Shown: one piece after another, positions 2,361-35,225 of the stretch
How the letters are laid out: every line of letters begins with the position of its first letter
How positions within the stretch are numbered: the stretch's first letter is position 1
Source: an archaeon
Lineage (GTDB): Archaea > Micrarchaeota > Micrarchaeia > Anstonellales > Bilamarchaeaceae
Length of the DNA stretch: 37,730 nucleotides
Direction of reading: 5' to 3'
NCBI GenBank assembly: GCA_020052735.1
Contig: JAGVON010000067.1
Span: 1 to 37,730, forward strand
Translations under genes and position numbers: made by a program
Notes under the pieces: generated by a model
Database searches by the model: none
What the model saw: the letters and a program-made list of their open reading frames with translations, nothing else
Told to the model about the DNA's origin: nothing

Positions 2361-2366
2361 AAATCC

Positions 2367-2376: not shown

Positions 2377-2411
2377 CGTCCCAGAAACTATTAAGTTCAT
2401 TGGTAGATTCT

Positions 2412-2885: not shown

Positions 2886-2889
2886 GCTG

Positions 2890-4446: not shown

Positions 4447-4461
4447 GAACGGGGGCTGGGA

Positions 4462-4716: not shown

Positions 4717-4720
4717 CCTA

Positions 4721-4867: not shown

Positions 4868-5077
4868 TCATTCACCTAATTTGCTAAAAAGTATAATGAA
4901 GTTGGTGGGATATGTTTTTAATAACTTGTCTGCCATCCGAATGTCAAGAAATCCGTGTCATTCGACCTCCGCCCGGATTTTACGTCGGGCGCCAGCCGAA
5001 CTTTCAGGGCGCGGATGAATTGGCCACCCTTTTCCATGTTTGATTACTGGCATCACCGGAGGGGAGGTCTCCCCTTG

Positions 5078-5085
5078 TTTATAAA
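5078..5085 (+). promoter_or_regulatory. Candidate TATA box for tnpB
   Basis: TTTATAAA lies about 28 nt upstream of the ATG at 5109, consistent with a leaderless or short-leader transcript. Confidence 0.4.
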
Positions 5086-5108
5086 CAACCTTTACACCAA
5101 GTTCTTGT

Positions 5109-6251: not shown

Positions 6252-6264
6252 GGTGGGGAGCATG

Positions 6265-18866: not shown

Positions 18867-18887
18867 CTTTACAGAAGAGTGGAAAAG

Positions 18888-20171: not shown

Positions 20172-21049
20172 TGAGGGGAATTGCGATTATCATGGCTCTC
20201 GTCTCCTTTTCCTCGGCCGGCTGCGGCATAATGGACACGGACGCCAACGTGGCGTTCACGCAGGCGCTCCCGATCATAGGCGCGGCGATCGCGCTTTCCA
20301 TCGCAGTGGCGGCGCTCGCCTACATGGCGGGCAGTTTCATGAGGAACCCCAACCTGCTCGTTTTCAGCAAGGACCAGATATTCCACACGTTCGTTTCTGT
20401 GCTCCTTGTTATCTCAATAGAGGGGATATTCTATGGGACGTGCATGTTCGCCAGCAGCGCGGCCGGCAGCGACCTGCAGTCCGCTTCCCTCAATTACATG
20501 CGGGAACTGCGGGTGGACGGCGGCCAGATGCTCGCCCAGATAATGAAACGCTCAATTGAGTATAAGTTTGAGGCAGCGTATTATACGGCATACCAGGTCC
20601 CGTACATGGGAGGGGAGGCCTATTGGTGGGAGGCATACAACAACGCATACGCCCGCAACCTGGAGATGCTGTTTGACTTCGTGATGGTGGGGTATGTCAG
20701 CGCGGGCGTGCAGTACAACCTCCTCGGGATGCTGCCGCAGATTGCGCTGGGCGTGATGGTGCCGATGGGGCTCCTGCTGCGCTGCATCCCTAAGGCGAGG
20801 GAGGCGGGAAACATGGTGATGGCGCTCGCCCTTGCGCTTTATGTCGTGATTCCGTTCTGCTACGCGGTCGCATCAACCATGAGGGAGACGGAGGTGCCGT
20901 GGTTCACCGGAGCGCCTGACGACACGGGCATCTCTTTTGAGGACGCGGGGCTGTACCTGTTCCAGACAATATTCCTGCCGAACCTCGCCTTGGTCGTGTT
21001 CGCGACCGCGGTGGGCGGGCTGATGAAGGTGGCTAAGGTGATACCATGA
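20168..21049 (+). CDS. Polytopic membrane protein, paralog B (shortest member)
   Basis: It overlaps A in ATGA. It has a lipobox-like SSAGC, then AALAYMAGSFMRNPNLLVFSKDQ. The core motif is VPMGLLLRCIPKAREAGN (20759-20812). Confidence 0.8.
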   Translation: MMRGIAIIMALVSFSSAGCGIMDTDANVAFTQALPIIGAAIALSIAVAALAYMAGSFMRNPNLLVFSKDQIFHTFVSVLLVISIEGIFYGTCMFASSAAGSDLQSASLNYMRELRVDGGQMLAQIMKRSIEYKFEAAYYTAYQVPYMGGEAYWWEAYNNAYARNLEMLFDFVMVGYVSAGVQYNLLGMLPQIALGVMVPMGLLLRCIPKAREAGNMVMALALALYVVIPFCYAVASTMRETEVPWFTGAPDDTGISFEDAGLYLFQTIFLPNLALVVFATAVGGLMKVAKVIP

Positions 21050-23337
21050 GGGCTGCACGCATATTCCTGCTCACATTCGCATTCCTCCTTGCCGCGGCCT
21101 TCGCGCAGGGCAGCGCGGGGGAGATACTCGCAGGCGTGCAGGAGCAGCCCGGGCTGCTCGGCAGCATAGCAAAGGACTGGCAGGTCTATACTGTGGCAGT
21201 GATGCTGCTGATGGCGGGGCTTGTGGCGCTCGCGTATGCGATAGCGAACTCGTTCTCGCTGCCCGACCTGAGGGCATGGGCGGACGTGGAGCTGGGGGAG
21301 ATATTCGCCAGCGCGCTCCTGCTGATGTTCATAATAGGGATAATATCGTTCATAGACGTGAGCGCCGCAGGCATACTCGGCCCGAGCTTCCCGAGCTCCT
21401 GCGAAAAGCCGGGCTTCTGCCCCGCGAACATCGCCTCGGACTACCTGGACAGCTACCTGAAGGCCGCGAATTCCGCATACAGGACAACGATGGTCAACAG
21501 CATAGACACCGCGAACGACGCGTTCGCGGGCAGCACGGTCGGCATACAGGACCTTATATACGGCTACCTCACGTACAGGTTCAGGGACAACCCCGAGAAG
21601 ATGATACAGGTGGAGATGTACGACCAGGTCCTGCAAAACCTCTCCGCAGTGCTGGCCTCGCTCGGGATGCAGAAGTTCATGCTGAAGTTCATGACATTCA
21701 GCGTAGCGCCCGTTGCGATATTCCTCGGCATTGTGCTGCGCTCTTTCTTCCTCACGCGCAAGATGGGCGGCCTCCTGCTTGCGTTCGGGCTGGGCTTCCT
21801 TGTGGTATACCCCCTCACTTATGCGCTGGCGTGGTACACGCTGGATGCGGCGATTTACGGGGCGCAGAAGGGCCCGAGCGGTACGCTGAACCCCTGCCCG
21901 AAAGTGTGCCTGCCGTTCTCCAAGGTGGTTGACCTTTCGGAAACGCCGCTCGTGGAGGTGCCCATGGAAACGGTGAGGGAGGACTTCCATGGCCAGTGCA
22001 TGGCTGAGCTGGAGAGCGACGGCATAGGCGAGACGGGCCGCTCAAACACCTGCATGGACGCATGCAGGGATGATGTGGATTCAACAGGGCGCTCGGATAG
22101 CTGCATGGACGGATGCACCGCAGGGATAGATTCCACGGGCAGGAGCGTACCGTGCATGGACGGCTGCATGGGGCAGTACTTCTTCAACTGCCAGGCAAGG
22201 TGCGCGGAACAATGCACCGAGGCGGGCTATGAGATGCCCGCGGCGGAGTTCCCGGACCCCGCGGTTGTCGCCAGGTGGGAGGAATGCATGGACCCGTGCA
22301 TGGAAGCGGAGAACTGCGACGCGACTGGGGTGGAAAGGACATCTTATTGCCAGGCAAACGAATGCCCGGTCGTGATAGGGGAGCTGGCTAGCGGGGTGGA
22401 ATACTGCCAGGCAACGGAGTGCGGCGTGCTGCCAGGATACACGGGCGAAGAAACGGCGTACTGCGAAGGGCAGTGCACCCCCCTTGAAGGGTTCGGGGGC
22501 AGCAGCGAGGAGTATTGCGACCATGAAACGGATGGGATGGTGGCACGGCTGGGGAGAACGGGCGGGGTGGCGGTGGGGAGCGGGGCGGATTACCACTCAT
22601 ACGGGTATTGCCCTGTGGACCCGTGCGGGTTCCCGATACCCTACCAGAAAAAGGAGTGCCTCGGATACACCGGAACCCCTAACATATGCAACACAAGGCC
22701 GTTCCAGCCCGACGACCCGGCATATGCGATGATGGACGCGAGCGAACTGGTGGACGGGTGCCCCGCGGAATGCAGGACGCTTGCGCCGATGGCGCCTGGC
22801 GCTGAATGCTTCAACCGGAAGAGCATACGGCAGGATGACGGGACGTACAAATACGAGCCGCTATGCCCGTCGCAATGCATGTGGATAACCACGGGCGGGG
22901 AGACGGACCGGACGTGCCCGGACGAATGCAGGGAATTCTATCCGGCACACCCGCAGGAGCTCTGGGACGCGAAGGCCTCGGACCAGACCTGCGTGTACAT
23001 AATACCTGATGTTGTTTTTGACGAGCCGGACACGTGCTCGCAGTGCGCGTTCGTTGCGGAGAAGGGGCTCACGATGGAGCCCGCGATGATATGGGACTGC
23101 ACCGCGTTCTGCGGCGCACCGAGTTCAACGGTGATGGGGCAGGACCCGGCCACGATGACGAACAACATAGGCGGGATGCAGGGGCCGACTGATGTCATAG
23201 CGGTGAGCAAGCTGATGGTGCCTGCCTTCGTGCTCCCGATTTTCTGCCTTGCGGTGACGCTGATGTTCGTGATGTCGCTTTCGCCCATGCTTGGCGGCGA
23301 CATAGACATACCTGGGATGATGAGGATGATGCAATGA
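21046..23337 (+). CDS. Polytopic membrane protein, paralog C, with a roughly 400-aa Cys-rich ectodomain insertion
   Basis: It overlaps B in ATGA. It has VALAYAIANSF…LRAWADVELGE. The core motif is IFLGIVLRSFFLTRKMGG (21718-21771). After the core hairpin comes a Cys-rich insert (about 21892-23115). The terminal TM helix is followed by the tail LGGDIDIPGMMRMMQ. Confidence 0.85.
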   Translation: MRAARIFLLTFAFLLAAAFAQGSAGEILAGVQEQPGLLGSIAKDWQVYTVAVMLLMAGLVALAYAIANSFSLPDLRAWADVELGEIFASALLLMFIIGIISFIDVSAAGILGPSFPSSCEKPGFCPANIASDYLDSYLKAANSAYRTTMVNSIDTANDAFAGSTVGIQDLIYGYLTYRFRDNPEKMIQVEMYDQVLQNLSAVLASLGMQKFMLKFMTFSVAPVAIFLGIVLRSFFLTRKMGGLLLAFGLGFLVVYPLTYALAWYTLDAAIYGAQKGPSGTLNPCPKVCLPFSKVVDLSETPLVEVPMETVREDFHGQCMAELESDGIGETGRSNTCMDACRDDVDSTGRSDSCMDGCTAGIDSTGRSVPCMDGCMGQYFFNCQARCAEQCTEAGYEMPAAEFPDPAVVARWEECMDPCMEAENCDATGVERTSYCQANECPVVIGELASGVEYCQATECGVLPGYTGEETAYCEGQCTPLEGFGGSSEEYCDHETDGMVARLGRTGGVAVGSGADYHSYGYCPVDPCGFPIPYQKKECLGYTGTPNICNTRPFQPDDPAYAMMDASELVDGCPAECRTLAPMAPGAECFNRKSIRQDDGTYKYEPLCPSQCMWITTGGETDRTCPDECREFYPAHPQELWDAKASDQTCVYIIPDVVFDEPDTCSQCAFVAEKGLTMEPAMIWDCTAFCGAPSSTVMGQDPATMTNNIGGMQGPTDVIAVSKLMVPAFVLPIFCLAVTLMFVMSLSPMLGGDIDIPGMMRMMQ
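22033..22167 (+). repeat. In-frame 51-nt (17-aa) tandem repeat inside paralog C
   Basis: TGRSNTCMDAC, TGRSDSCMDGC and TGRSVPCMDGC start at aa 330, 347 and 364, an exact 17-aa period. At nucleotide level each unit is ACxGGxxGxxxxxxxxxxTGCATGGACGxxTGC. Confidence 0.8.
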
Positions 23338-24404
23338 GGCAAACTGGACGGCTGTTGCTGTTGCTGGCGCTCCTTTCGCTCTCCTTCGCGGCCGGCGAGT
23401 CCCCGGACTGGGTTCCAATTGCGCTGCTCGCCGCCTTCACCGGGCTCGGCGTGCTTGTGATATTCTACCTCATCAGCTATGTTGTTGAGGCGGACCAGAT
23501 GAGGTCCATGGCCATTTCCGAGATGTGGCAGGTCGTCATAACCGCGGTGATGATCGCAGGGTTGATCGGGGCGCAGGCGCTGGCCACGGAGTTCGGCGCG
23601 GGGATGGCAGGCGATTTCGGCGCAGAGCCTGGCGACACGCAGCTGGATTTCGCAGTGAAGGTCACCCAGGCGACCGTTGAGTACCAGTGGGGCACCCTGA
23701 TGGATTATACAAACAATGTAGTGCTGCCGATGGGCGACCTCGCGTCCCTCTCCGGGAACTGCTGGCTGTTCGGGGTGGCATTCACATATTCAGGATGCGC
23801 GAGCATAAACGTGCCCTTCTCCTCAGCGTCCCTCGCGGCGAGGACCATGGCGATGGCGATACTGGCGCTGAACTCGCAGCTGGTGCTTCTGAAATTGGCG
23901 GGCAGCTTCTTCTTCCCGGTGCTGCTGCCGGTGGGGCTGTTCATGCGCACTTTCCACGTTACTAGGGGCACCGGGGGCTTCCTCATCGCGTTCGCCGTGG
24001 CGTTTTATTTCGTTTATCCCCTTGCAACGGTGCTCACGAAAGGGATGGCGGACATGGTCCCCCTCTCCTCAACCGGCGCCTCCTACCCTGGCATAGACCA
24101 GGTGTACGCGGACGAGACATGGGAATTCAGCAACGTTTACACATTCACGGTGCCGGCGGAATGCGACCCGTTCAAGACGTATGATTACCCGGAGACGGAC
24201 GAGTTTGAGGGATTCGGATACACGCAGAACCAGGTGAACAACCTGCTGAACGAAAACCTGATGGACCCGCTGCTGTTCATCTTCATGATAGAAGGGATAT
24301 TCAGCCCCGCGCTGAGCGTGCTGATTACGCTAGCGGTGCTGCGGCCCCTGACAAGGGCATTCGGGACCGAGGTTGACGTTTCGGCCCTAGGGAGGGTGTC
24401 TTAG
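23334..24404 (+). CDS. Polytopic membrane protein, paralog D
   Basis: It overlaps C in ATGA. The core motif is LPVGLFMRTFHVTRGTGG (23925-23978). The tail is FGTEVDVSALGRVS. Confidence 0.8.
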   Translation: MRQTGRLLLLLALLSLSFAAGESPDWVPIALLAAFTGLGVLVIFYLISYVVEADQMRSMAISEMWQVVITAVMIAGLIGAQALATEFGAGMAGDFGAEPGDTQLDFAVKVTQATVEYQWGTLMDYTNNVVLPMGDLASLSGNCWLFGVAFTYSGCASINVPFSSASLAARTMAMAILALNSQLVLLKLAGSFFFPVLLPVGLFMRTFHVTRGTGGFLIAFAVAFYFVYPLATVLTKGMADMVPLSSTGASYPGIDQVYADETWEFSNVYTFTVPAECDPFKTYDYPETDEFEGFGYTQNQVNNLLNENLMDPLLFIFMIEGIFSPALSVLITLAVLRPLTRAFGTEVDVSALGRVS

Positions 24405-25556
24405 ATGGTGTGCGCGGACATAAGCTGGCTGTATTCCCTTTCCGTGCTTTCGCTTGGGGTCACCCTAGTGGTCCTGGGCTTGGCGTACGCGCTGGGGCAG
24501 CTCCTCAGCAACCCCCAGTTCAACGTATGGGCAAAGACGGAGATGTTCCAGGTGTTCATTTCGTTCTTCCTGGTCCTGCTCGTGCTCTTCATGAGCGGCT
24601 CAATGTGCCACTTTAAGTATGCGGACCTTGCCGGGCTGGGCCCGGCAAGCAGCAACCCGCTGGACCTCTCCGCAAACCAGTACGCATACACGCATCCGGA
24701 AATCCTCCCGGAGGACAATATGATAAATGCGTCTGGGAAATACCTCGCGAACGTAGCGTATTTCATAAACACCGAAATGAGGGCGGCACGCGCCCTGTAC
24801 GGGATTTCGGACGAGGCGTCAAGGTATTCGCGCACCCCGTGCATGCCTGCCGCGACATTCTGCCTGTACGGGACCAGCGGATACACCGTGAGGCCGTACT
24901 CCGGGCTGAGCAGCTGGTCGCAGATACTCGGGTTCTCGCTCTACACCGACACCGCCTCATACCTGACCGTCCTCATACAGATGGCTCTGCTCGCGTTCAT
25001 ATCCGGGGGAGGGATAATGGCGTACCTGCCGCTTGCGATAATACTGCGCTCGCTCCCGTTCATGAGGCAGCTCGGGGGCGGATTGCTGGCGATATGCATA
25101 GCCCTGTTCATCATCTACCCTGCGCTGCTCACCGTGGAGTCCCTGTTCTGGAACCCATACCAGATGATTGGGGACGGCTGGGGCACGCTTGTGGATGCGG
25201 CGAACAGCATGGGCAGGGGATTCTCGTATGTGAGCGCGGGGGCGTATGCGGAGACCATGGCCGCGGCGCTTCTCCTGGCGGGCGCTCTTCTGGACCTGGC
25301 CGCGATAATAGCCGTGGCTGTTTCGGCTGGGTTTGTGAGCGCGGTGCTCGCGATAGTAAGCGCGGCGGGCGGCCAGTGGACGCTGGACACGTTCAATGCG
25401 GCGGTGCAGGTGAGCATGCAGGCGTCTTCCATATCCTTCTTAAGCGCGACGTTCCTCCTTTCGCTGAACATAATAGCCATAGGCGCGTCCGCACGGGAGA
25501 TTGGAAGGCTGTTGGGGCAGGAAGTAGACCTGAGCAGGCTTATGCAGGTGTTGTGA
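24405..25556 (+). CDS. Polytopic membrane protein, paralog E
   Basis: Its ATG directly abuts the TAG of D. It has LGLAYALGQLLSNPQFNVWAKTEMFQ. The core motif is LPLAIILRSLPFMRQLGG (25026-25079). The tail is LGQEVDLSRLMQVL. It has no signal-like prefix. Confidence 0.8.
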   Translation: MVCADISWLYSLSVLSLGVTLVVLGLAYALGQLLSNPQFNVWAKTEMFQVFISFFLVLLVLFMSGSMCHFKYADLAGLGPASSNPLDLSANQYAYTHPEILPEDNMINASGKYLANVAYFINTEMRAARALYGISDEASRYSRTPCMPAATFCLYGTSGYTVRPYSGLSSWSQILGFSLYTDTASYLTVLIQMALLAFISGGGIMAYLPLAIILRSLPFMRQLGGGLLAICIALFIIYPALLTVESLFWNPYQMIGDGWGTLVDAANSMGRGFSYVSAGAYAETMAAALLLAGALLDLAAIIAVAVSAGFVSAVLAIVSAAGGQWTLDTFNAAVQVSMQASSISFLSATFLLSLNIIAIGASAREIGRLLGQEVDLSRLMQVL

Positions 25557-26564
25557 ATGGCTGCGGAGGATTTGTTCCACTGGGCGTTTGCGGGCTGGGG
25601 AGCCGGCGGGTTCTGGTTCGTAAACTGCATACTTGCGATACTCATAACCGCGGTGGTGATGGGGACCATCTACATAATCTCATACGCCTTCAACATGGGC
25701 GGGCTGAAAAGGTTCGCGGTGTCGGAGTTCTACCAGCTTGCGGCGACGGCGGTGCTGGTCATTTTCCTGGTCGTGATAGTTGAGAACGGGCAGGAGTTTT
25801 TCCTTTCCAGGTACCCCGGCGGGATAATCTGCCAGGGCGCGGTGGTGCACAACACCGTGGAGGCTGCGATGTGCCGCACCGAGGAGCGGCTCACGTATTT
25901 CAGCAACGCGTTCAATAGCATACGGGACAGCAGCGACCTCGCGGACAAGGAGCTCAGGTACTATTCATCCATGTCGCTGTTCGGCATAATATTCTGGCAG
26001 GGGAACTTTGACGCCAGCCTGCACAAGTACGTGGAGACGCAGCACGCGATAGCGTACAAGCTGGTTTCGCTGATGATTTCGCTCAACAGCCAGGTTTTCG
26101 TGCTTAAATACATATTGGAGAACATGCTGGTGTTCTTCCTTCCGCTTGGGATAGTGCTCAGGACCCTGCATTTCACGCGCGGCATAGGCGGTTTCTTCAT
26201 CGCGCTCGCGGTTTCCTTGTATTTCATCTATCCGGGCATGCTCTTCATAATGGACGCGTCATACGGCCCCGCCGCGCCGGAGATGCCGTCCTCAATATCA
26301 AACCGCGCGGACTTCTGCAACATACCTATATTCTCGGGGATGTCGCTGGGGGCGGCCACGCCAGAGGGGCAGAGCACGAGGAGCGCGGCGTCAATATCCG
26401 TAAGCACCTCCAACCTTGCGTCGTTCATGTCGCAGGTTTTCGTGAAGCTGTTTTACGACAATATGGTTGCGCTTTCAATAGCGGTCGTGGCAATGAGGTA
26501 CATGACCATGCTGCTCGGTGGGGACAGCAGCGTGTTCCTGCAGATGATGGGGAGGTGGGTGTGA
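25557..26564 (+). CDS. Polytopic membrane protein, paralog F
   Basis: Its ATG directly abuts the TGA of E. The core motif is LPLGIVLRTLHFTRGIGG (26139-26192). The tail is LGGDSSVFLQMMGRWV. Confidence 0.8.
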   Translation: MAAEDLFHWAFAGWGAGGFWFVNCILAILITAVVMGTIYIISYAFNMGGLKRFAVSEFYQLAATAVLVIFLVVIVENGQEFFLSRYPGGIICQGAVVHNTVEAAMCRTEERLTYFSNAFNSIRDSSDLADKELRYYSSMSLFGIIFWQGNFDASLHKYVETQHAIAYKLVSLMISLNSQVFVLKYILENMLVFFLPLGIVLRTLHFTRGIGGFFIALAVSLYFIYPGMLFIMDASYGPAAPEMPSSISNRADFCNIPIFSGMSLGAATPEGQSTRSAASISVSTSNLASFMSQVFVKLFYDNMVALSIAVVAMRYMTMLLGGDSSVFLQMMGRWV

Positions 26565-29500
26565 TGAAGGGCATTTTCTTTGTCTTGGCTTTCGCTTTCG
26601 TGATGGGGGCGCTCGTGCTTCCGGGCTGCGTGGCGCCGCAGCCGTCGTTCAGCAACTGCTGCATGTATGCAAACGCGAGCGAGGACGGGCGCTGCATAAC
26701 CGCAGACCGCACGGAATACGAAATAGCCGGAGAAGGGTGCGACCTCCTCAACATGGCATGCAACGTCACTCTCGGGGAGGGGGATGAGGCGCACGACGAG
26801 CTCCTGCCCATCTGCCCGAAGTCCGAGCTGCTGAAGTGCAACAGCAGCTGCGTAGGGATGTTCTGCGGCTCCTTTGAGTTTGACCCCAGGCCGCCGATAT
26901 CGCTTGACGCGGAGGACATGAACGATTCCCGCGACACCGGGGATGCGGACACGGGCCAGTTCGGGGGGACTGACAGGGGCGGGGCGAAGGGATTGTACAA
27001 CGGGGAATGCAAGTTCCTGAACATGAGCCCGGCCACCCTGCGCGCCACCGCCAACACGAACGGGGGCTTCGCGCTCAACAGCTTCAGGTTCGGCGTCGGA
27101 GATTCGTTCGCGGATTTTGACGAGGCGAGCATGTACTACCCGCTGACGGACTTCGCATGCAAGATAAACCTGCTCGGCACCACGGACAGGTATGCGAACT
27201 ACGCGATACCGAACGTGCTCGTATCCGGGAAGATATGCAGCCCTCCGAGCCCGGGGGACAACAAGTGGATGTGCATACCCTCCACTTCTCCTGGAGAGGA
27301 GCCCATCTGGGCATATTCCTATTTTGACTGCGCGACGAAGTGCCTGCTCCAGTGGCAGGGCGATTATGCGGGGATAGACCCGGACAGCGCTTACCTCACG
27401 GAGAGGAACGGGCAGGCGCTGGGGAACCCGTTTGCCTACGGGGCAGCCGCGGCATCGCCCTGGGGGCCGCTGATAAACGACAAGGACTACAAGAGCGCCG
27501 TGGTGGAAAGCTCGTTCTACGACGGATATCCGCTCGGCTATAATTATTATGGCGCGGATTTTGAGAGGGACGACCGCCAGCTGGGCCCGGACAGGGGAGG
27601 GATAGATGGGCTGCTCGCGGAGCAGGGAAGCGGGGAATTTATTGTGCAGGGCGATGTGATGGACTATTATGCGGGCGCGGAGGCGGATTTGCCTGTCATG
27701 GAGTGGGACAGCCTGCTTGAGAATTTCGTTACCGTGGAGAGGGAGCCGCACAGGATGTACAACTTCCTGCTCACTTACCATTCAGTCTATTCAAGGCAAT
27801 TCCAGGACGGGCACTACCTGGCGGACGGCTCCTGGGCGAATGGGGCGGAGTTTGAGTGCACGCTTGAGAACAACGGCTGCCTCTCGGGCTACTGCAACAT
27901 ATTTGACTACTCGCGCGGTGTTTGCCAGAACATGGACGACCTGGCGAAGGATGCTAACTGCGACTGCATGTATGATTTCAACGAGGGGGGCGTAGTGTGC
28001 ACCGGAAAGAAATTGCTGAATTCCGCTTCCTGGGACAGGTACGGGGATGCCACCTCCAACATAGAAGTGGCGACCACCCTTGCGGCGCCGATAGACCGGA
28101 TAGGGGACTCGCCCTTCACGCACACCTCCATGCCTTCCAAGGGGAGGATTGTGAAATTCAACCTGGACAACCCGGACTACATAAGCGGCATAGCCGAGGC
28201 GGACCGGAACGACATAGAGAGGCCCTTCCTCGTAATATTCCTTGGCGGCGAGGACACCGTGCCGCAATATACGGTCCGCACAGGGGAAGGGGGCACATCA
28301 TACGGGGACATGGCGGGTGAGGACGTGAGGTGGGACACCCTCACGATACCGCAGGTGCTCTCAAGGGAGAAGTGGGACGGGTGCGGCGGCGACTGCGGGA
28401 AATTCTACACCACGTTCGTGGACCAGTGCGTGCCCACTTATGAGGAAAACCCGGGGTTCTATGCGGACAGCTTCAGCGTGTGCTATGCCGGGGATAACCC
28501 GAGGACCGGATGGCGCGGCATGTACCTGGACACGGACGGGACAATCAAGGACGAAAATTGGAACTGCCAGGGGCTTGAGCTCTTCAACAGGCAACACGTG
28601 GACGGGAAGGGTGACGGCAGGTCGTGGCAGGTGTATTGCTACGCGCGGGACGAGGACGGGAACTGCGAGGCGTATTCTGTTTCCGCGCTCGTGATAAGGG
28701 GAAAGGACGTCATTTACACGGACGCGGATGGGAACGAGGCGGAGGGGCAGGCGTTCGGGAAGTGCCTGCTGGACGGGAATGGGAACCTCCTCACAAAGAC
28801 GTATGGCTACTGCGAACAGTGCGGCTACCTGACCATGGCGAAGGACAGCGTGGTCGCCCTGCCCGAGGAAAAGGACGACCCGGGATACGAGGCGCTGCGC
28901 GGAAGCGGCGGGAGCGCGCAGCGGAAGGACAATAAGTATTGCCCCTCGCTCATGATAAGCACCATTTATTCGCCTGCCGCCTCTTCGTCCATAGAAAGCG
29001 CGCCCCCTCCGCTCGTGGAATGGGAAGGGGAGGGCGTGCATCCTTCAAGCGATGATGAGGATGATTCGTACTACAGGAGCCAGTGCACGATGCCGGACGG
29101 TAGCGAAGTCGGGATGGAAGAGGCATGGCCGGACTACCTTCCGAATGCGTATTACCTGAAGTCAAAGCTGCAGGATTACCTTCAAAGGAACATAATGCCC
29201 GTGCTGTTTGCGGACGACGATGGGCTGTATCGGGCGAGGACTTCGGACAGCGAGCCGTACAAGGACAAGCCCGTGCTGCAAATCGGATTCACAGACCATT
29301 ATGAGGAGATACAGGCGGCCACGACCACTCATCCGCTGCTTGCCGAGATGTGGAGCCGAAATCCGTCCACTTCATATTTTGACAAATACGCGCAGGCAGG
29401 GGACCAGCCGTATGCGTACAGCACGCAGGGAACATATCTTGCGGATTCGGTGATGGACCTGGGCGCCGGGATAATAGTTGTGAAGAACCTGAGCGCCGAT

Positions 29501-30799
29501 TTTGTGGAGGGCTCTGGCATCACTACCGGGCTGGGGTGGAGGTCCGGTTCGGTGAGGGCAATGTGCCCCAATTGCATGGTCGCGGTGGCGGCAGGCTACG
29601 ACGAGGGGAAGGGCTCGCATGAGGAGAAGATGCGGCTGGTTTCACGGCTCTTCGGGTACGGCATGAGATATGGGTCAGGGGAGCCGCTCTGGGAGGACTA
29701 CTCATACAACATGTCCTGCGCAAACGGGGAGGTCCCGTGCCTGTATGAGCGCCTGGATTATGCGGACGTGATTGCGGTGGACTGGACGCTGGGGGGGAGG
29801 AACTCCCACTGCGACATTGAAGGCCAGGACGAAAGGTTCGCCGCGATACTGGCGGACGAGATGGAGTTCGGCTCAAAGATGCTCAGCAGGTTCGGGAAGC
29901 CGCTTGTGGTTACGGACCTCACCATAATACGGCGCGAGGGTGCGATTTATGACGAGGGGGTTAGGGACTGCTGGGACGAGGAGAGCGCGGCGAGGTTCGT
30001 TGGATACCTCGGCCAGCATACGGAAGACCTGATAAGGAGCGGCCATATCGGCATCATTTATGGGGATTGGAGCTATGGGCATTCAAGTGGCACCTCCGGC
30101 CCCACATACATAAGGACGCAGGAGAGCATAGCCGGAGGGAGCGTGGGCGGATACAGGGGCCCGCTCTACGAAGGCACCCTGTTCGCCGCAAGGGACTTCT
30201 CGGGATACGGCAGGATGATTTCATTGATAGAGGTGCCTGTGAAGGAGAGCTGCGCCTGCGTGCCATGCACATCCACGGACCCGGCGGAGATATGCAACGG
30301 CCAGTACGCGGGGAGCGGGGCGCTGTGCGAATGGGAGGGCGCGCGCGTGATGGTCAAGTGGCCAGACGACTGCATAACCGGGGATGCGTGCATGCCCGAG
30401 GGCGAGATTGCGGGATACTTCATGGACTGCACGATAGTGGCGGGCGGGCAGGAAACCTCGTTCAGCGCGGATGGTGCCGATGTCGCGGCTAACCCCGAGC
30501 TTTACAAACAGATGATAGCGTCCATAAGCAACACGGTGGAAAGGCCGTGCTTCATGGGAAAGACATACGGAAAAACAGAGATAACGCGGTTCCTCTCCCA
30601 CCCCGTGCTGTTCAGGACGGACGGGAACCTGAGCTATACATGCAACCCGCTTTCCGCGGCAGAGGGGGCGCTTTGCGGCCCCACGCCCAGCCTGGACCTA
30701 GGGCAGATGGACTGCACGCTGAGGCCGAAGATGGGCGGCATTGTTCCCGGGGGCGGCATTCCGTTCCCTGACCTGCCCAGCGGGCCGATAGGAGGATAA
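26564..30799 (+). CDS. Giant (about 1411 aa) Cys-rich secreted or lipoprotein-like protein, unknown family
   Basis: The ATG at 26564 shares one base with the TGA of F (TGATG); the track lists an upstream GTG at 26555. The signal peptide MKGIFFVLAFAFVMGALVLPGC has a lipobox-like Cys. I counted about 50 Cys by eye. There are many N-x-S/T sequons and no further TM helix. Confidence 0.8.
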   Translation: MKGIFFVLAFAFVMGALVLPGCVAPQPSFSNCCMYANASEDGRCITADRTEYEIAGEGCDLLNMACNVTLGEGDEAHDELLPICPKSELLKCNSSCVGMFCGSFEFDPRPPISLDAEDMNDSRDTGDADTGQFGGTDRGGAKGLYNGECKFLNMSPATLRATANTNGGFALNSFRFGVGDSFADFDEASMYYPLTDFACKINLLGTTDRYANYAIPNVLVSGKICSPPSPGDNKWMCIPSTSPGEEPIWAYSYFDCATKCLLQWQGDYAGIDPDSAYLTERNGQALGNPFAYGAAAASPWGPLINDKDYKSAVVESSFYDGYPLGYNYYGADFERDDRQLGPDRGGIDGLLAEQGSGEFIVQGDVMDYYAGAEADLPVMEWDSLLENFVTVEREPHRMYNFLLTYHSVYSRQFQDGHYLADGSWANGAEFECTLENNGCLSGYCNIFDYSRGVCQNMDDLAKDANCDCMYDFNEGGVVCTGKKLLNSASWDRYGDATSNIEVATTLAAPIDRIGDSPFTHTSMPSKGRIVKFNLDNPDYISGIAEADRNDIERPFLVIFLGGEDTVPQYTVRTGEGGTSYGDMAGEDVRWDTLTIPQVLSREKWDGCGGDCGKFYTTFVDQCVPTYEENPGFYADSFSVCYAGDNPRTGWRGMYLDTDGTIKDENWNCQGLELFNRQHVDGKGDGRSWQVYCYARDEDGNCEAYSVSALVIRGKDVIYTDADGNEAEGQAFGKCLLDGNGNLLTKTYGYCEQCGYLTMAKDSVVALPEEKDDPGYEALRGSGGSAQRKDNKYCPSLMISTIYSPAASSSIESAPPPLVEWEGEGVHPSSDDEDDSYYRSQCTMPDGSEVGMEEAWPDYLPNAYYLKSKLQDYLQRNIMPVLFADDDGLYRARTSDSEPYKDKPVLQIGFTDHYEEIQAATTTHPLLAEMWSRNPSTSYFDKYAQAGDQPYAYSTQGTYLADSVMDLGAGIIVVKNLSADFVEGSGITTGLGWRSGSVRAMCPNCMVAVAAGYDEGKGSHEEKMRLVSRLFGYGMRYGSGEPLWEDYSYNMSCANGEVPCLYERLDYADVIAVDWTLGGRNSHCDIEGQDERFAAILADEMEFGSKMLSRFGKPLVVTDLTIIRREGAIYDEGVRDCWDEESAARFVGYLGQHTEDLIRSGHIGIIYGDWSYGHSSGTSGPTYIRTQESIAGGSVGGYRGPLYEGTLFAARDFSGYGRMISLIEVPVKESCACVPCTSTDPAEICNGQYAGSGALCEWEGARVMVKWPDDCITGDACMPEGEIAGYFMDCTIVAGGQETSFSADGADVAANPELYKQMIASISNTVERPCFMGKTYGKTEITRFLSHPVLFRTDGNLSYTCNPLSAAEGALCGPTPSLDLGQMDCTLRPKMGGIVPGGGIPFPDLPSGPIGG

Positions 30800-30800
30800 A

Positions 30801-30807
30801 ATTTAAA
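30801..30807 (+). promoter_or_regulatory. Candidate internal TATA box ahead of the last large gene
   Basis: ATTTAAA lies in the only real spacer of the operon (32 nt), centred about 28 nt upstream of the ATG at 30832. Confidence 0.3.
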
Positions 30808-30831
30808 GGTGAGCATATCCATAACGAATAC

Positions 30832-33800
30832 ATGAGGAAGGGTTTGCCAGCCGTGGTTATTCTGGTTGCGGCAATCCTTTCCATGGTTCCGGGCATCGTT
30901 TGGGGGGAATATGGAGGAGGCCCTGCGCCCGGCATCTCAAATCCGCTCATCCGCGTGGACATAACGGGGGTGCATGTGATAAGCCCGCAGGAGGTCTGCC
31001 CTTCGTGCAGCATATTCACTACGCAGCCTTTTATGGCGCCGTCCATAAACGAGGAAGAGGAAACCGTCTCCGTGAGCATGGGGGTCATAGATGCGGGCGG
31101 CCTGAGCCCGGTGGAGGGCGCCACGATTTTCGCATATGTGCAGAGGCAGGATGGGAGCAATGCGCAGGCACCCTGCAGGGTATACACCAATGAGAACGGG
31201 AGCGCAAAAATCAGCTACAACCCGGAGGAATGCCGGGATGGGTGCACGACGAAGTTCTTCTTCTGCTGCGCAGACCCGGTCGCGCTGGCATGCGTGCTGG
31301 AGCCGTGCCTCGGCCAGCCGGTTGCCGCATACACGGACATACCCGCATGCGCCGGATACGGTGGGGAATGGCCATCCCCTGCAACCATAGATGGGGAGGA
31401 GGTACAGCTATATCCCACGCTTGAGACTGCATTCATCCCGCCCCAGACGGTGCTGCCGGAATTTGACTACACGTTCACCTTATGCTTCCCGCTGCTGGTG
31501 ATATTCGGGTTCCTGGGGGCTGCGATGTACGCTTCGGGGAGGGACCCGTTCGCGATGTTTTCATTCTATACCCCCAGGTTCACGAGGGGGGCCGAGAGGC
31601 CGATACAGGGAAGGGGATACACCATACCCGGCTCCTCAATAATAAACGTCGCGATGAAGGCGACCGACCTTGCGACCGGTAAGACAACCGCGAAGGAGAT
31701 GTTCACCAGTTCCATGGAGCAGAGCTCCATGATAGCGAAAACAAAGGGCGCCACGGGCGAGCTTGGCTCAGGCACGGGCAGCAGGGCTGCGGCTGGCAGG
31801 GCAGGCGCTGCGGCAGAAGAAACCAGCAGGACCTCCGCAGACCGCATGGCGGCGGGAGGAGGTTCCGGTGCGGTGCTGGGCATGAGCCTCGGGGTGTCAG
31901 AACAGATGATGCGCCCCGGCGCGGCTGGGGTCGGGGTGGGGACCGCGCTTCTTGCGCTGCTGGGGATAATGCTTAGGTTCTCAAACGCTCCCTGGCTTAC
32001 GGGCGGGCTGGCCCAGAAATTGATCGGCATTGCTGAAGCGTGGCAGGCGGAACGCGTCGCGAGCTATGCGCAGACTTATGCGGCGCCAATATCCTCAACC
32101 GTTCAGACGCAGTTTGACTCCGAGGGATATGTGGCAAAACTCACTTACAGGGACCCGCAAAGCGGCCAAACGATTGTTGTGGAGGGGCGGGAGGCATGCG
32201 CAGCGTTCATAGATTCCGTTACGACGGGCCTGTATTTATCCTCCCAGGCAGGAAGCAATGCTGCAACCGAACTCATGAGCAACTTCAACGAAAGGATTGC
32301 AAACCTCCAGCACCCCACAGCAGGGGCGAGGGAGCTGCTCAGGGTGGAAGTGGTCAGGGCTGAGGGGCCTGCCGAGGTCCTGGATGCACTGGGAACCCTG
32401 GCTGACCTGAACTCCTCGGCTGCAAAGAGGCGCGAGGCGCTGGAGATTGTCGCCGGCTCCGACCAGGTTTCGGAAGATGTGAAGATAGCCGCCTTCGTTG
32501 CAGCCACGGAAGGCATGACGTACCACCAGTTTGCGCAGTTCGTTGGCGCGGAAGGAACGGCCGCGAACAGGATATTTTTGGAGCTCGTCTCCAACTCCGC
32601 GGCGCTCAATGAGAGGCTGGACGGGAAGATTGACGGGAACATGCTTGGGGCGCTTGGGGCCGCCGCGGAGCGGCTTGAGCAGCTTAACGGAAGCAGGAGG
32701 GAGGGGCAGGCGGACAGCCTGGGCTTGGGCACGAGTGTCGTTGCAATAAGAAGCGGCATTGGTGAATGCCACGGGGATGCGGATACGTTCGTATTCAGGC
32801 AGGGCACCGAGGAGGCCGCCGCGAAGATGGCTGCTATGGGATTGTCCGGTGCTGCGCTGGACACGCGCATAAGTTTTGATGAAATAGGGGGGCAGCGGGT
32901 TGTTCTCGGCCACATACAGGATGACGAAGTGCGCGCGGAGATTGAAGCAGCCACGGACAGCGAGGGAAATATAGACATATCAAAGCTAAGCGGAAAGGCG
33001 AGAAGCGAGTTGGGAGACGTGATTAACTACCAGCTCAGGGAGGCGGTGGTCAGCGAGTACAATACAGCATATTCCGTGCAGCAGGAGGCGGATTTCAAGA
33101 ACGGGGATTCGGACGAAGCGAAGGCGGTGAGGGCCTTCCAGGATGCGCTGGGGAACTACGAGGCGGCTTCGCAAAGCTCCTATTCCCTTATTGACAGGTA
33201 CGTGACCGGGCCTGCTATGGCTGAGGTTGGCGGGTTGCTGGATAGCAATCCGAATCCTGTGGATAGCCAAGGAAGGTTGACAACGATGGTGCTGCCCGAG
33301 CACCTTGCAGCGGATGACGTGAAGAGGATAATGCAGGACCATGGCGTGGACCCGGAGCTGGCCAGCATAGTCGCAGGCATCAGCGGGGCGGAGGCGCAGG
33401 CGAATTTTGCAACCGGGCTTCGCGAGGGGCTGGGGTCGCTGACGATGGGGCCCGCGGAGTTTCACGGGCAGAATGCAGACAAAGCATATGGCGACATTGG
33501 CGAAGTGGACCGCCAATTGGCAGAATTCAATGCCGCTGTGCAGACGCTCCAAAACCCGGATGCAACTGCAGAAGCGAAAGAGCAGGCGAGGGGCATCGTG
33601 GCTGCGGGCGCATTGATTGTGGCGGACCACGTGCCGGATGATATGGGCAATCTAATCCCGGTAACACTGTGGGAGCATGTGCAGGGGGAGGCAAGCCGCA
33701 TCATGGGCGACCAGAATGCGAGCCAGGCGGACAAGCAGTGGGCGCAGGAGGTCAGCGGCATAAACCCGGAAACGGCGCTGAGTGACGAAAGGCAGGTGGC

Positions 33801-34908
33801 GGTGCTTTGGCAGGAGTACAACACGCATATGGGGGAGCAAAAGGACGCGCTGAATGCAGAGATGGAATCCAGCAGGAATATGGAAACCATATTTGCGCTT
33901 GGGCCGCCCCTTGACCATCCCCCTTCCAATGAACAGGAAAGGATTGTGGCGCAGGAGAGGGAAAGCGCGCTGCGGGCTGCGGTAGAGCAATACGCAACCT
34001 CGGCGTATTCACAAGCCGAAGCAGGTGTAACGCCAGATATTGGGCAAATAATATTAGGCACCATGTACGGAAACCCGAATGAACGGGAGATGCTGGACGA
34101 GGCGAGGTCAGGCCTGCCCCCTGCTGTTCAGGGACAGCTTGACGTGTTCCTTTCGGATACAGCGTCAGATGAGGAGAAATCATCCGCCTTGACTGTGCTC
34201 GTGCCTGCCTTGGATACTTATTACAGGTATGCCGAAAATCCTGCTGACGACCGGCTAACCGCAGCGGACCGCGGAGATGCCCAGTGGGCGGTGCATACGC
34301 TCCAAAATTCGGAGGACCTTGCGGCAAGGGCGCAGGCAGCGGATGTCCTAAAAGGGCTTAGGGGCGTCTCGGCAGAGGCGCAGCCGGGGATAGATGCGCT
34401 GGTTGCCACGGCGAACGTGCCGCCCTCGCAATTTAGCGAGGAGCAAAAGGCAAGCCTTGGCACAGCAGCACCAGTTGTCCAGGAAAGGCTGGATATATAC
34501 TTTGATACTGTGGGGCTTGACAGGGCAGTTTCGGATCCGGATGGGACCCGGCTCGGGCTGGCAAACGACTATGCCGCAGGCCGCCAGACGGAACTGGAAC
34601 AACTCAGGCAATATGCACTTGATGGCGGCAGTGCTGTGGGCAGGGCCCAGTACGAGAACGCACAAATACAGATTTCCCTCCTTGGGAATGAGGCGATAGA
34701 AAAGTTCTATGCGGATATGAACAGGAACAGGGAAATCGCGGAACAAGCTGCAAAGAGCATATCGGAACACAGGCCCGAGGGCGGAACCGGGGAAGGCGCA
34801 GGCGGCGCCGGAGGGCAGGGAGGCGGCACGGCATACAGCTCGGCCGCAAGAAGGACTTCCGAATCCAGGAGCCAGGGGCAAGTGCCGGATGAGGAGATAC
34901 CTAGGTAG
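30832..34908 (+). CDS. Giant (1358 aa) bitopic or two-TM protein, unknown family
   Basis: It has a signal-like N-terminus (PAVVILVAAILSMVPGIVWG) and a roughly 190-aa Cys-containing ectodomain with a prealbumin/CarboxypepD_reg-like stretch (GATIFAYVQRQDGSNAQAPCRVYTNENGSAKISY). TM helix 1 is LCFPLLVIFGFLGAAMYA. A Ser/Ala/Gly-rich loop follows. TM helix 2 is VGVGTALLALLGIMLRF. About 950 aa of Ala/Glu/Gln-rich, probably helical sequence follows. It ends in a Gly-rich tail. Confidence 0.8.
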   Translation: MRKGLPAVVILVAAILSMVPGIVWGEYGGGPAPGISNPLIRVDITGVHVISPQEVCPSCSIFTTQPFMAPSINEEEETVSVSMGVIDAGGLSPVEGATIFAYVQRQDGSNAQAPCRVYTNENGSAKISYNPEECRDGCTTKFFFCCADPVALACVLEPCLGQPVAAYTDIPACAGYGGEWPSPATIDGEEVQLYPTLETAFIPPQTVLPEFDYTFTLCFPLLVIFGFLGAAMYASGRDPFAMFSFYTPRFTRGAERPIQGRGYTIPGSSIINVAMKATDLATGKTTAKEMFTSSMEQSSMIAKTKGATGELGSGTGSRAAAGRAGAAAEETSRTSADRMAAGGGSGAVLGMSLGVSEQMMRPGAAGVGVGTALLALLGIMLRFSNAPWLTGGLAQKLIGIAEAWQAERVASYAQTYAAPISSTVQTQFDSEGYVAKLTYRDPQSGQTIVVEGREACAAFIDSVTTGLYLSSQAGSNAATELMSNFNERIANLQHPTAGARELLRVEVVRAEGPAEVLDALGTLADLNSSAAKRREALEIVAGSDQVSEDVKIAAFVAATEGMTYHQFAQFVGAEGTAANRIFLELVSNSAALNERLDGKIDGNMLGALGAAAERLEQLNGSRREGQADSLGLGTSVVAIRSGIGECHGDADTFVFRQGTEEAAAKMAAMGLSGAALDTRISFDEIGGQRVVLGHIQDDEVRAEIEAATDSEGNIDISKLSGKARSELGDVINYQLREAVVSEYNTAYSVQQEADFKNGDSDEAKAVRAFQDALGNYEAASQSSYSLIDRYVTGPAMAEVGGLLDSNPNPVDSQGRLTTMVLPEHLAADDVKRIMQDHGVDPELASIVAGISGAEAQANFATGLREGLGSLTMGPAEFHGQNADKAYGDIGEVDRQLAEFNAAVQTLQNPDATAEAKEQARGIVAAGALIVADHVPDDMGNLIPVTLWEHVQGEASRIMGDQNASQADKQWAQEVSGINPETALSDERQVAVLWQEYNTHMGEQKDALNAEMESSRNMETIFALGPPLDHPPSNEQERIVAQERESALRAAVEQYATSAYSQAEAGVTPDIGQIILGTMYGNPNEREMLDEARSGLPPAVQGQLDVFLSDTASDEEKSSALTVLVPALDTYYRYAENPADDRLTAADRGDAQWAVHTLQNSEDLAARAQAADVLKGLRGVSAEAQPGIDALVATANVPPSQFSEEQKASLGTAAPVVQERLDIYFDTVGLDRAVSDPDGTRLGLANDYAAGRQTELEQLRQYALDGGSAVGRAQYENAQIQISLLGNEAIEKFYADMNRNREIAEQAAKSISEHRPEGGTGEGAGGAGGQGGGTAYSSAARRTSESRSQGQVPDEEIPR

Positions 34909-34916
34909 GTCTGTAC

Positions 34917-35225
34917 ATGCAGGAAACACGCCCGCTCAGGAGGTTGCGCAGGCACCTTTCAATAGAGAATTTGTGGCTCTATATCTTATCATTAATCAAG
35001 AGAGAGGAATGCTATGCATACACCCTCCCTGAGCAAATAGAGAAGGAGTATGGGTTCAAGCCCAGCCGCGTGATGGTGTATATCGTATTGCACATGCTGG
35101 AGGGCGAGGGGCTCATAAGGGGCGAGCAGAAGGAGAGGCGGAAGTATTATACGCTCACGGAAAAGGGGGACGAGACGCTCAAGGAAGCAAAAAAGGAGAT
35201 GAAAAGGCTCTCCGAAAAGTTATGA
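34917..35225 (+). CDS. PadR-family winged-helix transcriptional regulator
   Basis: 102 aa. …ENLWLYILSLIKREECYAYTLPEQIEKEYGFKPSRVMVYIVLHMLEGEGLIRGEQKERRKYYTLTEKGDETL… matches the PadR pattern. It starts 8 nt after the stop of the giant gene. Confidence 0.75.
   Translation: MQETRPLRRLRRHLSIENLWLYILSLIKREECYAYTLPEQIEKEYGFKPSRVMVYIVLHMLEGEGLIRGEQKERRKYYTLTEKGDETLKEAKKEMKRLSEKL

Follow-up and report, generated by a model that had tools for sequence, protein, structure and literature searches.

The 37,730-nt contig JAGVON010000067.1 of assembly GCA_020052735.1 (hereafter the window; contig C10 of a 1.09-Mb Micrarchaeota genome that is 88% complete) carries an operon in which six paralogous polytopic membrane proteins (A to F) and a Cys-rich exoprotein (G) are followed by a giant of 1358 amino acids (aa), the product of gene T, and the question that this locus raises is what such a giant contributes to such an assembly. 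An earlier note made from the sequence alone had read T as a protein with two transmembrane segments (TMs), a small ectodomain and a very long helical region that could act as a stalk, a ruler or a cytoskeletal tether, and had seen in the tetrapeptide FTRG, located after the first of these segments (TM1), a possible echo of the core loop of the paralogs and of a docking site shared with them. The reading that we favor, and to which we would give about an even chance, is that T belongs, as a bitopic subunit specific to its lineage, to an envelope machine of Micrarchaeota that is undescribed. Its N-terminal module would plug into the paralog complex and its tail would form a platform in the cytoplasm.

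The conserved part of T is a short module around TM1

Orthologs of T were found in 37 of 41 related genomes, and 21 of them were aligned. The design that is widely conserved consists of a signal peptide, an immunoglobulin (Ig)-like disulfide ectodomain, one TM and a juxtamembrane motif, after which the tail follows. Within this design, the truly conserved element is TM1 together with SGR(N/D)P(F/L)xxFxFxxPR, which stands directly after it (aligned consensus S-G-R-(N/D)-P-(F/L)-x-x-F-(D/S)-(F/L)-x-x-P-R; SGRDPFAMFSFYTPR in the window, with RDPFAMFSFYTPRFTRGAERP also present in the translation after TM1). Residues C59, G123, C218, L228, G236, P239 and F243 are invariant in the 21 orthologs, and P248 and R249 nearly so. 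Between the window and locus L013, its closest relative for this operon, the ratio of nonsynonymous to synonymous substitution rates (dN/dS) was 0.04 for TM1 plus motif, a value that is rough, as are all such ratios given here, because dS is near saturation.

At the N-terminus of the aligned orthologs, a basic n-region precedes a hydrophobic core, which is followed by an end resembling (S/A)-x-(A/S)-Q, and the signal peptide of T is predicted to be cleaved. The 188 residues between this helix and TM1 (residues 26-213) contain 10 Cys, and C59, C138, C145 and C159 are the conserved Cys columns of the ectodomain. An AlphaFold2 (AF2) model built on the 21-sequence alignment, with a mean predicted local distance difference test score (pLDDT) of 74.8, displays a beta-sandwich in this region, a helix at residues 218-234 and the motif as a low-confidence coil. 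Kyte-Doolittle (KD) hydropathy thus confirmed the signal-like helix and the TM1 that the earlier note had described, and the number of cysteines and the modeled sandwich bore out its roughly 190-aa Cys-containing domain with a beta stretch. An exhaustive VIA search with the model gave the Big_1 domain of invasin as its first match (Z 9.3, root-mean-square deviation 2.0, 84 residues) and also found macroglobulin (MG) domains of C5, C4, C3 and bacterial alpha-2-macroglobulin at Z 8.1-8.7 (model residues ~61-205), Z-scores in a range that supports a common fold only. Foldseek searches against the Protein Data Bank (PDB) with the same model returned nothing at E 0.001 or better and only weak matches to generic sandwiches, and the ectodomain had no match in Pfam even at E up to 10. 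The fold assignment agrees with the Pfam labels found in a relative, P0153 (2554 aa), in which 20 tandem sandwiches of the T type are labeled MG2, bMG3, Big_1 and MG4, while another relative, P0154, displays a NosD/beta-helix region ahead of the module. The ectodomain of T, which thus shares its fold with the Big_1 domains of invasin/intimin and with MG domains, differs from them by extra conserved cysteines, by a CxxC near its start and by the missing Pfam match of T itself.

This fold is of the adhesin type, and G, which is encoded directly upstream of T, has no C-terminal TM. These two observations would suit a protein that is mainly a membrane anchor or an adhesin, holding G or the surface layer (S-layer) through its Ig-like domain, with a tail that is only a loosely constrained spacer. 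It would also suit such a role that the way in which the cultivated Micrarchaeon anchors its S-layer protein is given as unknown in the available text of a preprint. The properties of the tail that are described below bear on this possibility, which we consider quite unlikely.

A sorting signal for an archaeosortase (PGF-CTERM type) was also considered for the conserved element and rejected. In such signals, the signature motif precedes a C-terminal TM, which is then followed by a short basic tail; in T, the motif sits after the TM and about 1100 residues follow.

The same module is found on a second giant, which adjoins six paralogs in other genomes

The genome encodes a second giant, S2 (1627 aa; locus L036, contig C104, 2285-7165 on the minus strand), in which a signal peptide and a Cys-containing ectodomain precede one TM and the motif TGRSPASLLDITTP; the tail that follows is unrelated to that of T and ends in CxxC..CxxC. 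When N-terminal profiles made from 21 T sequences (A2) and 12 S2 sequences (A5) were compared using hhalign, they matched at 99.4% (E 8.8e-22) over 146 columns covering the sandwich, the TM and the motif. Both T and S2 display the features of this N-module family, which are a signal peptide, a Cys-containing sandwich, a TM with C-x-P and SGR(N/S/D)P..(F/L)(D/S)..P, and neither has a match in Pfam or NCBIfam (P-loop families included in the case of T). A search of the phylum with the N-terminal profile gave hits in 62 of 151 genomes, most of which have a second giant open reading frame (ORF) matching TM plus motif or sandwich plus TM plus motif, and most genomes of the order have both T and S2. 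The S2 tail is much better conserved than the T tail: S2 is 81% identical over its full length to its counterpart in genome G007, whereas T matches G007 over residues 46-336 only. On contig C104, S2 is followed by a gene for a Cys-rich secreted protein (1-2372, minus strand) that runs off the contig. This protein has no Pfam match at E up to 0.01 and contains YES and GLMQTE, which presumably recall lytic-transglycosylase motifs.

Comparisons of gene order connect both giants with the paralogs. Twenty loci with a T ortholog were fetched, one of which is a 5-kb contig with T alone that is uninformative for synteny; T adjoins genes of the A-F/G set in all 19 informative loci, in agreement with the earlier assignment of T to the paralog operon. 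G is directly followed by T in 16 of the 20 loci, a 5.5-kb insertion separates the two in one more, and T is divergent and adjoins A in another two. As for S2, it adjoins six paralogs and is followed by a Cys-rich exoprotein in G037, G059 and G031, which belong to the order and lie outside the genus of the window, and a giant with the N-module is located beside the paralogs in G071, G118 and G128, which belong to other orders. An N-module giant was thus found beside six paralogs in 6/6 loci examined outside the genus. The unit made of six paralogs, a Cys-rich exoprotein and an N-module giant exists twice, and this is the best evidence here tying the module to the paralog complex.

The same comparisons also concern the gene for a PadR-family regulator, which is found immediately 3' of T in 10 of 21 loci. 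In locus L026, where T was relocated to the opposite side of the operon, the PadR gene (L026:16903-17235) is still directly behind it, as might be expected if T were a contact sensor with an ectodomain that detects a surface event and a tail that holds or releases PadR. We consider such a sensor very unlikely, considering that no PadR gene adjoins T in the 11 other loci (it adjoins A in L027), that S2 has the same module and no PadR neighbor, and that no signaling domain was found in any tail.

Using hidden Markov models (HMMs) of the paralogs, 13 members were detected in the genome, of which the window has six, contig C27 another six in a row and contig C86 one. The C27 set (99-6931, plus strand) consists of six consecutive open frames of 394, 351, 436, 420, 343 and 335 aa, after which come unrelated convergent genes. 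On C86 (locus L037, 14057-18790, minus strand), the 13th paralog stands immediately upstream of both a 259-aa membrane ORF and an intein-containing ATPase of 1025 aa that matches the NCBIfam models for CedB (E 9.5e-24), VirB4-like proteins (E 1.9e-18) and CedD (E 7e-16), and the coordinates indicate the same paralog-ATPase adjacency in G007 and G012. The CedB-like ATPases of relatives have ~480-530 aa, with one to three copies in each of five genomes examined. The N-terminal domain of VirB4 (PF03135) had no match in the genome of the window, at its 88% completeness.

FTRG appears to be a clade-specific coincidence

The letters that had drawn attention to a docking site are present as claimed: FTRG is found after TM1, and paralogs F and D carry HFTRGIGG and HVTRGTGG, respectively, with R208 and G209 invariant and T207 nearly invariant in the F family. 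On this basis, T could be a two-TM protein whose FTRG mimics the paralog loop and docks there, with a helical domain of 950 aa that would be turned outward or would serve as a stalk, a ruler or a cytoskeletal tether. [FVL]TRG is indeed rare (the long ORFs of the genome, 257,015 aa in total, contain it 10 times, which makes ~0.05 expected per T-sized protein), and [FY]TRG is kept after the conserved Pro-Arg in all close relatives, namely in seven of the 21 genome orthologs (the window, five sequences of its own genus and one of the sister genus) and in all 11 close database homologs. In the 14 remaining orthologs, this position is taken by FSMG, FKRA, FITG, PPTG, LSKH or other letters, and among 93 representative proteins, which were those that matched the motif pattern and whose tail had 300 aa or more, [FY]TRG follows PR in 13. 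Moreover, hhalign gave a probability of 0.4% for the N-terminal profile of T against that of paralog F (A3), and 35% against that of paralog D (A4) through the signal peptides only, with nothing at the loop, while the control comparison of F with D reached 99.9% (E 1e-36).

The idea of an echo of the paralog loop is thus contradicted by the profiles and by the ortholog alignment, which shows the lack of conservation that the earlier note had named as a refutation, and the match would be a coincidence rather than homology, if a mild one in view of how rare [FVL]TRG is in the proteome. As for the shared docking site, what stands is that a shared module exists (TM1 plus SGRNPF..PR); it is common to T and S2, and not to the paralog loop. 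Since a single TM was found in most orthologs and no long helix in the tail model, as detailed below, we judge the whole two-TM docking reading to be highly improbable.

T is probably a type I membrane protein with a cytoplasmic tail

Summed over the 21 orthologs, the 15 residues that precede TM1 include 15 K/R and 33 D/E, whereas the 25 residues that follow it include 94 K/R and 27 D/E. The Cys content is 0-0.4% in the tails, compared to 3-6% in the ectodomains and G. A second hydrophobic segment (KD above 1.6) is absent from 13 of the 21 genome orthologs and from 72 of the 93 representative proteins, and its distance from TM1 varies where it is present. Where relatives have additional N-terminal decorations, these belong to extracellular types (DUF7107 Cys knots, NosD/beta-helix and 20 MG/Big_1 repeats), and S2, too, has a single TM, with CxxC..CxxC at its end. 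Altogether, the charge bias, the Cys depletion of the tails, the single TM of most orthologs and the extracellular type of the N-terminal extras suggest that the ectodomain is outside and that the tail is cytoplasmic, as in a type I protein (N-out, C-in). The Lys content of the tail, at 6.5-13% in 15 of the 21 lineages, matches that of cytoplasmic proteins.

The two-TM description of the earlier note holds for the window, in which a second hydrophobic segment does exist, and does not hold for the family; a two-TM topology with the tail outside is contradicted by the single-TM orthologs. At the position of this "TM2", a hydrophobic segment is found in the window, L013 and L014 only, and other relatives from the genus have an amphipathic sequence with Lys, Glu and Asp instead. 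We therefore regard the side of the tail as less certain in the subclade of the window, owing to this helix. The Ser/Ala/Gly-rich loop that leads to it was confirmed as a stretch of 110 aa (residues 263-372) that contains A at 18%, G at 17%, S at 12% and T at 11%. We also observed, in the window and the orthologs L013-L018, that the depletion of Lys in the tail is confined to the genus of the window (0.7-2.8% Lys, with Arg at 5.6-8.3%), while the sister genus (L016) and the other genera examined are Lys-rich.

The tail is mostly helical, changes fast and appears to be constrained

The last ~965 aa of T have a maximum KD of 0.95 (no further hydrophobic peak), a net charge of -75 and 2 Cys, which bears out the earlier description of a long, acidic region of low hydrophobicity. 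With 633 long ORFs of the genome as the reference, A (1.62x), Q (2.47x), D (1.35x) and, mildly, E (1.2x) are enriched in the tail and K (0.34x) and C (0.16x) are depleted, so that the richness of the tail in Ala, Glu and Gln also holds, if only mildly for Glu. A glycine-rich run, GGTGEGAGGAGGQGGG, is located close to the C-terminus. The AF2 model of the tail (9 sequences) consists mostly of helical hairpin bundles (mean pLDDT 66.2; predicted template modeling score, pTM, 0.59), in agreement with the proposed helical nature, and 181 of its 964 residues are below pLDDT 50. At the small beta-meander closing the conserved N-terminal part, several orthologs have a similar G-x-V...G pattern in the alignment. 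The longest modeled helix has 49 residues, and the crude heptad score of the tail (0.50, compared to 0.51 for the 95th percentile of shuffled maxima; a home-made score, not COILS/Marcoil) is within the shuffled range: the coiled-coil check thus revealed no heptad signal above shuffles, and a single long stalk or ruler is contradicted.

No known family was recognized in these tails. Pfam searches with 20 ortholog tails found no domain at cutoff, the sole match being DUF6082 in L015 (16.5 bits for a cutoff of 26.7), and searches with the tails of 33 representatives gave matches in two proteins only, all under cutoffs and none to a P-loop family. The Walker A pattern [AG]xxxxGK[ST] is absent from T and S2, and its matches in 7 of 21 T orthologs are at positions that do not correspond. 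With the tail model, Foldseek found nothing at E 0.001 or better in the PDB, and the best match of a wide VIA-align search (Z 8.8) was to generic helical hairpins, under the level that is meaningful for helical models. The ESM Atlas gave no usable match for T or S2, and self-BLAST of the tail revealed no internal repeats. At the sequence level, the only matches of T to PDB chains were two to a FAK-paxillin fusion (E 0.22-0.26), which we dismissed. Two further identities were considered and rejected: an SMC or long coiled-coil protein, given that there is no ATPase head family, no Walker A in T and no helix beyond 49 residues, and a phage tape-measure or mobile-element protein, given that there is no family match and that the operon is found across the order amid housekeeping genes. 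In line with the latter, tblastn searches of 50,697 phage and 72,556 plasmid records with T returned nothing. The tail is therefore without a known SMC or tape-measure family and without a viral or plasmid context, and its neighbors are chromosomal housekeeping genes.

The tail is alignable by BLAST only within part of the genus of the window, and an iterated HMM of it reached 14 of 32 tails, all from this genus. Between the window and L013, its dN is 0.24-0.30, compared to 0.10-0.12 in the paralogs, and its dN/dS is ~0.13-0.14. The tail thus appears to be constrained yet fast-changing, under a selection that would be purifying rather than diversifying overall, and this purifying selection suggests that it is functional. 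These results also bear on the possibility that T is mainly an anchor or adhesin with a spacer for a tail. The skewed composition and the 181 residues modeled below pLDDT 50 are what one would expect from a spacer, but a length kept at 700-1800 aa in every ortholog is not, and the dN/dS of ~0.13 and the AF2 model, which packs most of the tail into helical bundles, also argue against it.

The operon has an ancestry that appears discordant with its flanks

By housekeeping and flanking proteins, the genomes nearest to that of the window are G007 and G001, to which the identities are 96% and 92% for Pelota, 94% and 89% for x249, 92% and 92% for SHMT, 92% and about 90% for GatE, and 81% and 80% for S2, respectively. 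Nevertheless, the A-G proteins of these two genomes are only 41-55% identical to those of the window, and T matches in its N-terminal fifth only. G003 is more distant according to the markers (Pelota 85%, SHMT 82%, S2 49%) and nonetheless has the most similar operon (B-G 75-85%, T 66%). The DNA gives the same picture: the flanks are 83-88% identical to G007/G001 while the interior (19100-34808) is patchy, at 65-77%, whereas G003 aligns contiguously with this interior at 76.5% identity. Homology with G001 ends ~220 nt into gene A (19099) and resumes at 34808, inside the end of T, and the C-terminal peptide ..GQVP.EEIPR of T is common to L017, P0006 and P0012 and not found in L013. T thus appears to be the last and fastest-evolving gene of a ~15.7-kb cassette whose ancestry is discordant with that of its flanks, which suggests that whole-operon alleles are exchanged between species. 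Considering this exchange together with the rapid change of the tail, the tail probably carries specificity rather than catalysis.

A polymorphic domain directed at a partner or host, exposed or delivered through the machine, with the N-module as no more than a handle for export or anchoring, could leave similar traces. Such a domain might well be the fastest-evolving part of the operon, unalignable beyond the genus and encoded in a hypervariable cassette (41-55% identity in the cluster, for 89-96% in the flanks). The tail of the genus is also Lys-depleted and acidic like the exoproteins, a second TM may exist in the subclade of the window, and the presence of one module on two giants with unrelated tails resembles modular polymorphic proteins. 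We still consider it unlikely that the tail is of this kind, because tails are near Cys-free whereas clearly extracellular parts have 3-6% Cys, because Lys contents are cytoplasm-like in most lineages, because dN/dS is ~0.13 and because a second TM or another export signal is missing behind TM1 in most orthologs.

A proposed role for T and what weighs against it

In the role that we propose for T, the core of the machine would be the six paralogous polytopic membrane proteins, and the N-module would be the plug that seats the giants T and S2 in or beside their complex. Outside the cell, the ectodomain would be in contact with the Cys-rich exoproteins, and the cytoplasmic tail would be a platform or adaptor, specific to each system, for cytoplasmic partners, which may be a CedB/VirB4-like ATPase encoded elsewhere or cargo.

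Several points weigh against this proposal. The contact between T and the paralogs is a prediction from genomic context and sequence. In the genus of the window (G000 and G007), S2 and its Cys-rich neighbor sit apart from the paralogs. Paralogs were detected in 135 of the 151 genomes of the phylum, compared to 62 for the N-module, and two families have paralogs in 45/45 and 25/25 genomes and no N-module hit, so that paralogs can be present where neither T nor S2 is detectable. The operon has no ATPase gene, and the CedB-like genes of relatives are more than 100 kb away. The likeness of the paralogs to VirB6/CedA is weak at the sequence level, since, of 19 D-family members, 3 had a hit to CedE (best E 0.0029) and 2 had a hit to CedA. 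The segment at residues 363-381 (KD 2.02) could be a real TM2 in the subclade of the window, which would put the tail outside, and the tail of the genus is Lys-poor (0.7-2.8%) as are the exoproteins, when the cytoplasmic proteins of this organism have 8-10% Lys. The selection argument, finally, rests on the rough dN/dS ratios mentioned above. A complex prediction for T residues 55-284 with F and D, made without controls, scored 0.00, and it counts neither for nor against binding.

A bolder version of the proposal, which we rate as rather unlikely, would make T and S2 the interchangeable inner arms of two paralogous cell-to-cell conduits, specific to Micrarchaeota and derived from machinery of the T4SS (type IV secretion system) or Ced type. 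With the universal plug, a giant tail specific to its system would then be seated beneath six VirB6-like paralogs arranged as a ring, where it would choose or pass on the cargo, and the ~15.7-kb operon would be swapped as a cassette for partner or host specificity, like a mating-type or surface-antigen locus.

Relation of T to described systems

In the available text of the literature consulted, the architecture closest to that of T is that of the SPEARE-type giants of Nanohaloarchaeota, for which a re-analysis describes Ig-like repeats, a TM, an ATPase domain of the VirB4/TraG type in the cytosol and an end that forms a coiled coil, and which were proposed to be part of a type IV secretion-like apparatus (PMC10266531). 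Like them, T is a protein of a DPANN symbiont with an Ig-like ectodomain, one TM and a very large region, helical or coiled at its end, that is placed in the cytosol, although for T this side is a prediction; its relative P0153, moreover, also has Ig-like copies in tandem (20 of them). Unlike them, it has no VirB4/TraG-like ATPase domain and no Walker A, it has one ectodomain instead of ~75, and it has both the SGRNPF..PR motif and a link to six polytopic paralogs; we found no sequence relation between T and the SPEARE-type giants.

As for the Ced and Ted systems, which import DNA in Crenarchaeota, and the inner-membrane parts (VirB6, VirB4) of bacterial T4SS machines, a likeness is seen in the polytopic paralogs with their weak CedE and CedA matches and in the 13th paralog beside a CedB/VirB4-like ATPase. 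The differences are that the architecture of T is absent from the described components and T matches none of their models, that the operon is without an ATPase and without a recognizable pilin, and that six-fold paralogy with two giants is undescribed for those systems in the texts available. According to the accessible part of another study, archaeal systems have neither VirB3 nor VirB8, the connectors that link the VirB6-like channel to the ATPase (PMC11868833). T or S2 could in principle fill this connector place.

The T4SS of Patescibacteria (CPR) is reported, in the text that was available, to be needed for epibiotic growth, with variable surface components that are thought to adapt to hosts (PMC12102498). 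It resembles the present case in that an ultra-small symbiont keeps a chromosomal, divergent T4SS-like system, and it differs in being of the bacterial monoderm type with recognizable VirB4, VirB3, VirB6 and VirB2; the same text mentions no counterpart of T. The S-layer protein of the cultivated Micrarchaeon is described in the available text of a preprint as a 101-kDa protein with almost no sulfur amino acids and with S-layer domains, and we rejected the idea that T or G could be such a protein since neither resembles it. Full-text literature searches, whose scope left subscription journals and supplements aside, returned no paper describing the T family or the operon, and the available main text of two papers on the cultivated Micrarchaeon, supplements aside, makes no mention of them. 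The named database relatives of T are all from metagenome-assembled genomes of Candidatus Micrarchaeota/Micrarchaeia and are annotated "hypothetical protein". T is thus most likely an uncharacterized, Micrarchaeota-specific bitopic giant with no described relative, whose N-module docks to the six-paralog machine and whose tail faces the cytoplasm.

Features and neighborhood of the locus

The features discussed above are collected in Table 1. The run of genes without Pfam match that contains A-F, G and T also includes a gene for a secreted 339-aa protein on the opposite strand, and it is flanked by housekeeping genes, with GatE, L11, SHMT, FtsZ and Spt5 on one side and Pelota on the other.

Table 1. 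Coordinates of gene T, of its parts and of adjacent genes in the window (residue numbers refer to the T protein)
Feature	Position	Strand	Basis
Paralogs A-F, six polytopic membrane genes	18879..26564	+	translations; all six recovered with F and D HMMs
Gene G, 1414-aa Cys-rich exoprotein, directly upstream of T	26555..30799	+	translation
Gene T, 1358-aa bitopic giant, terminal gene of the operon	30832..34908	+	ORF and translation, no internal stops
Signal-peptide-like helix, residues 1-25	30832..30906	+	KD 2.57 at residues 5-23
Disulfide-rich Ig-like (MG/Big_1-type) beta-sandwich ectodomain, residues ~60-205	31009..31446	+	AF2 pLDDT ~90
TM1, residues 214-234, with invariant Cys218 and near-invariant Pro220	31471..31533	+	KD 2.07 at 214-232; AF2 helix 218-234
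Juxtamembrane motif, residues 235-249	31534..31578	+	21-ortholog alignment
FTRG tetrapeptide, residues 250-253, clade-specific	31579..31590	+	[FY]TRG in 7/21 genome orthologs
Ser/Ala/Gly/Thr-rich linker, residues 263-362	31618..31917	+	composition; poor alignment and variable length in orthologs
Lineage-specific hydrophobic helix ("TM2"), residues 363-383	31918..31980	+	KD 2.02 at 363-381
Acidic, Cys-poor, Lys-poor, mostly alpha-helical tail, ~965 aa	32011..34905	+	AF2 model, composition
Small beta-meander, residues ~425-451, closing the conserved N-terminal part	32104..32184	+	AF2 strands at tail residues 31-34, 40-46 and 53-57
Last 100 nt of T, right edge of the cassette	34808..34908	+	blastn against L017 (G001) resumes, 83% identity
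PadR-family regulator, 9 nt after T	34917..35225	+	Pfam PadR, E 7.5e-14

Three other genes of the window were noticed. A DNA methyltransferase gene (14346-16844), whose GC content is 0.43 when that of its surroundings is ~0.58, is located between an AAA ATPase gene and the upstream neighbors of the operon, and it looks like an insertion since the spacing from SHMT to x249 is ~2.2 kb shorter in G007. The ATPase (11588-14278) is of the CDC48 family with a double AAA region, its gene lies 3.5 kb upstream of the operon (and would be closer without the methyltransferase insertion), and its first ~350 residues have no match to a Pfam N-domain. An IS605-type OrfB/TnpB gene (5109-6251; OrfB_IS605, Cas12f1-like TNB and HTH domains) sits amid housekeeping genes. 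As for public sequencing runs, one DNA match to the window was found, a groundwater metagenome that contains 0.26 of the sampled words, and no RNA run was listed with the sequence of the window.

What T may mean for symbiont-host contact

The lifestyle of DPANN archaea, Micrarchaeota among them, is one of attachment to host cells, and we know of no described mechanism by which they connect to these hosts and exchange material with them. An operon that is conserved, duplicated and very variable, as is the case here, is a good candidate for the machinery of symbiont-host contact. What is new concerning T is a putative docking module whose short invariant motif lends itself to mutation, another protein carrying this module and a predicted side for the tail. 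The cassette-like exchange that the locus appears to undergo is what one would expect of a specificity determinant. Were T to serve as the connector that archaeal Ced-type systems lack between channel and ATPase, it would reveal the way in which a lineage with a minimal genome rebuilt a T4SS-like machine.

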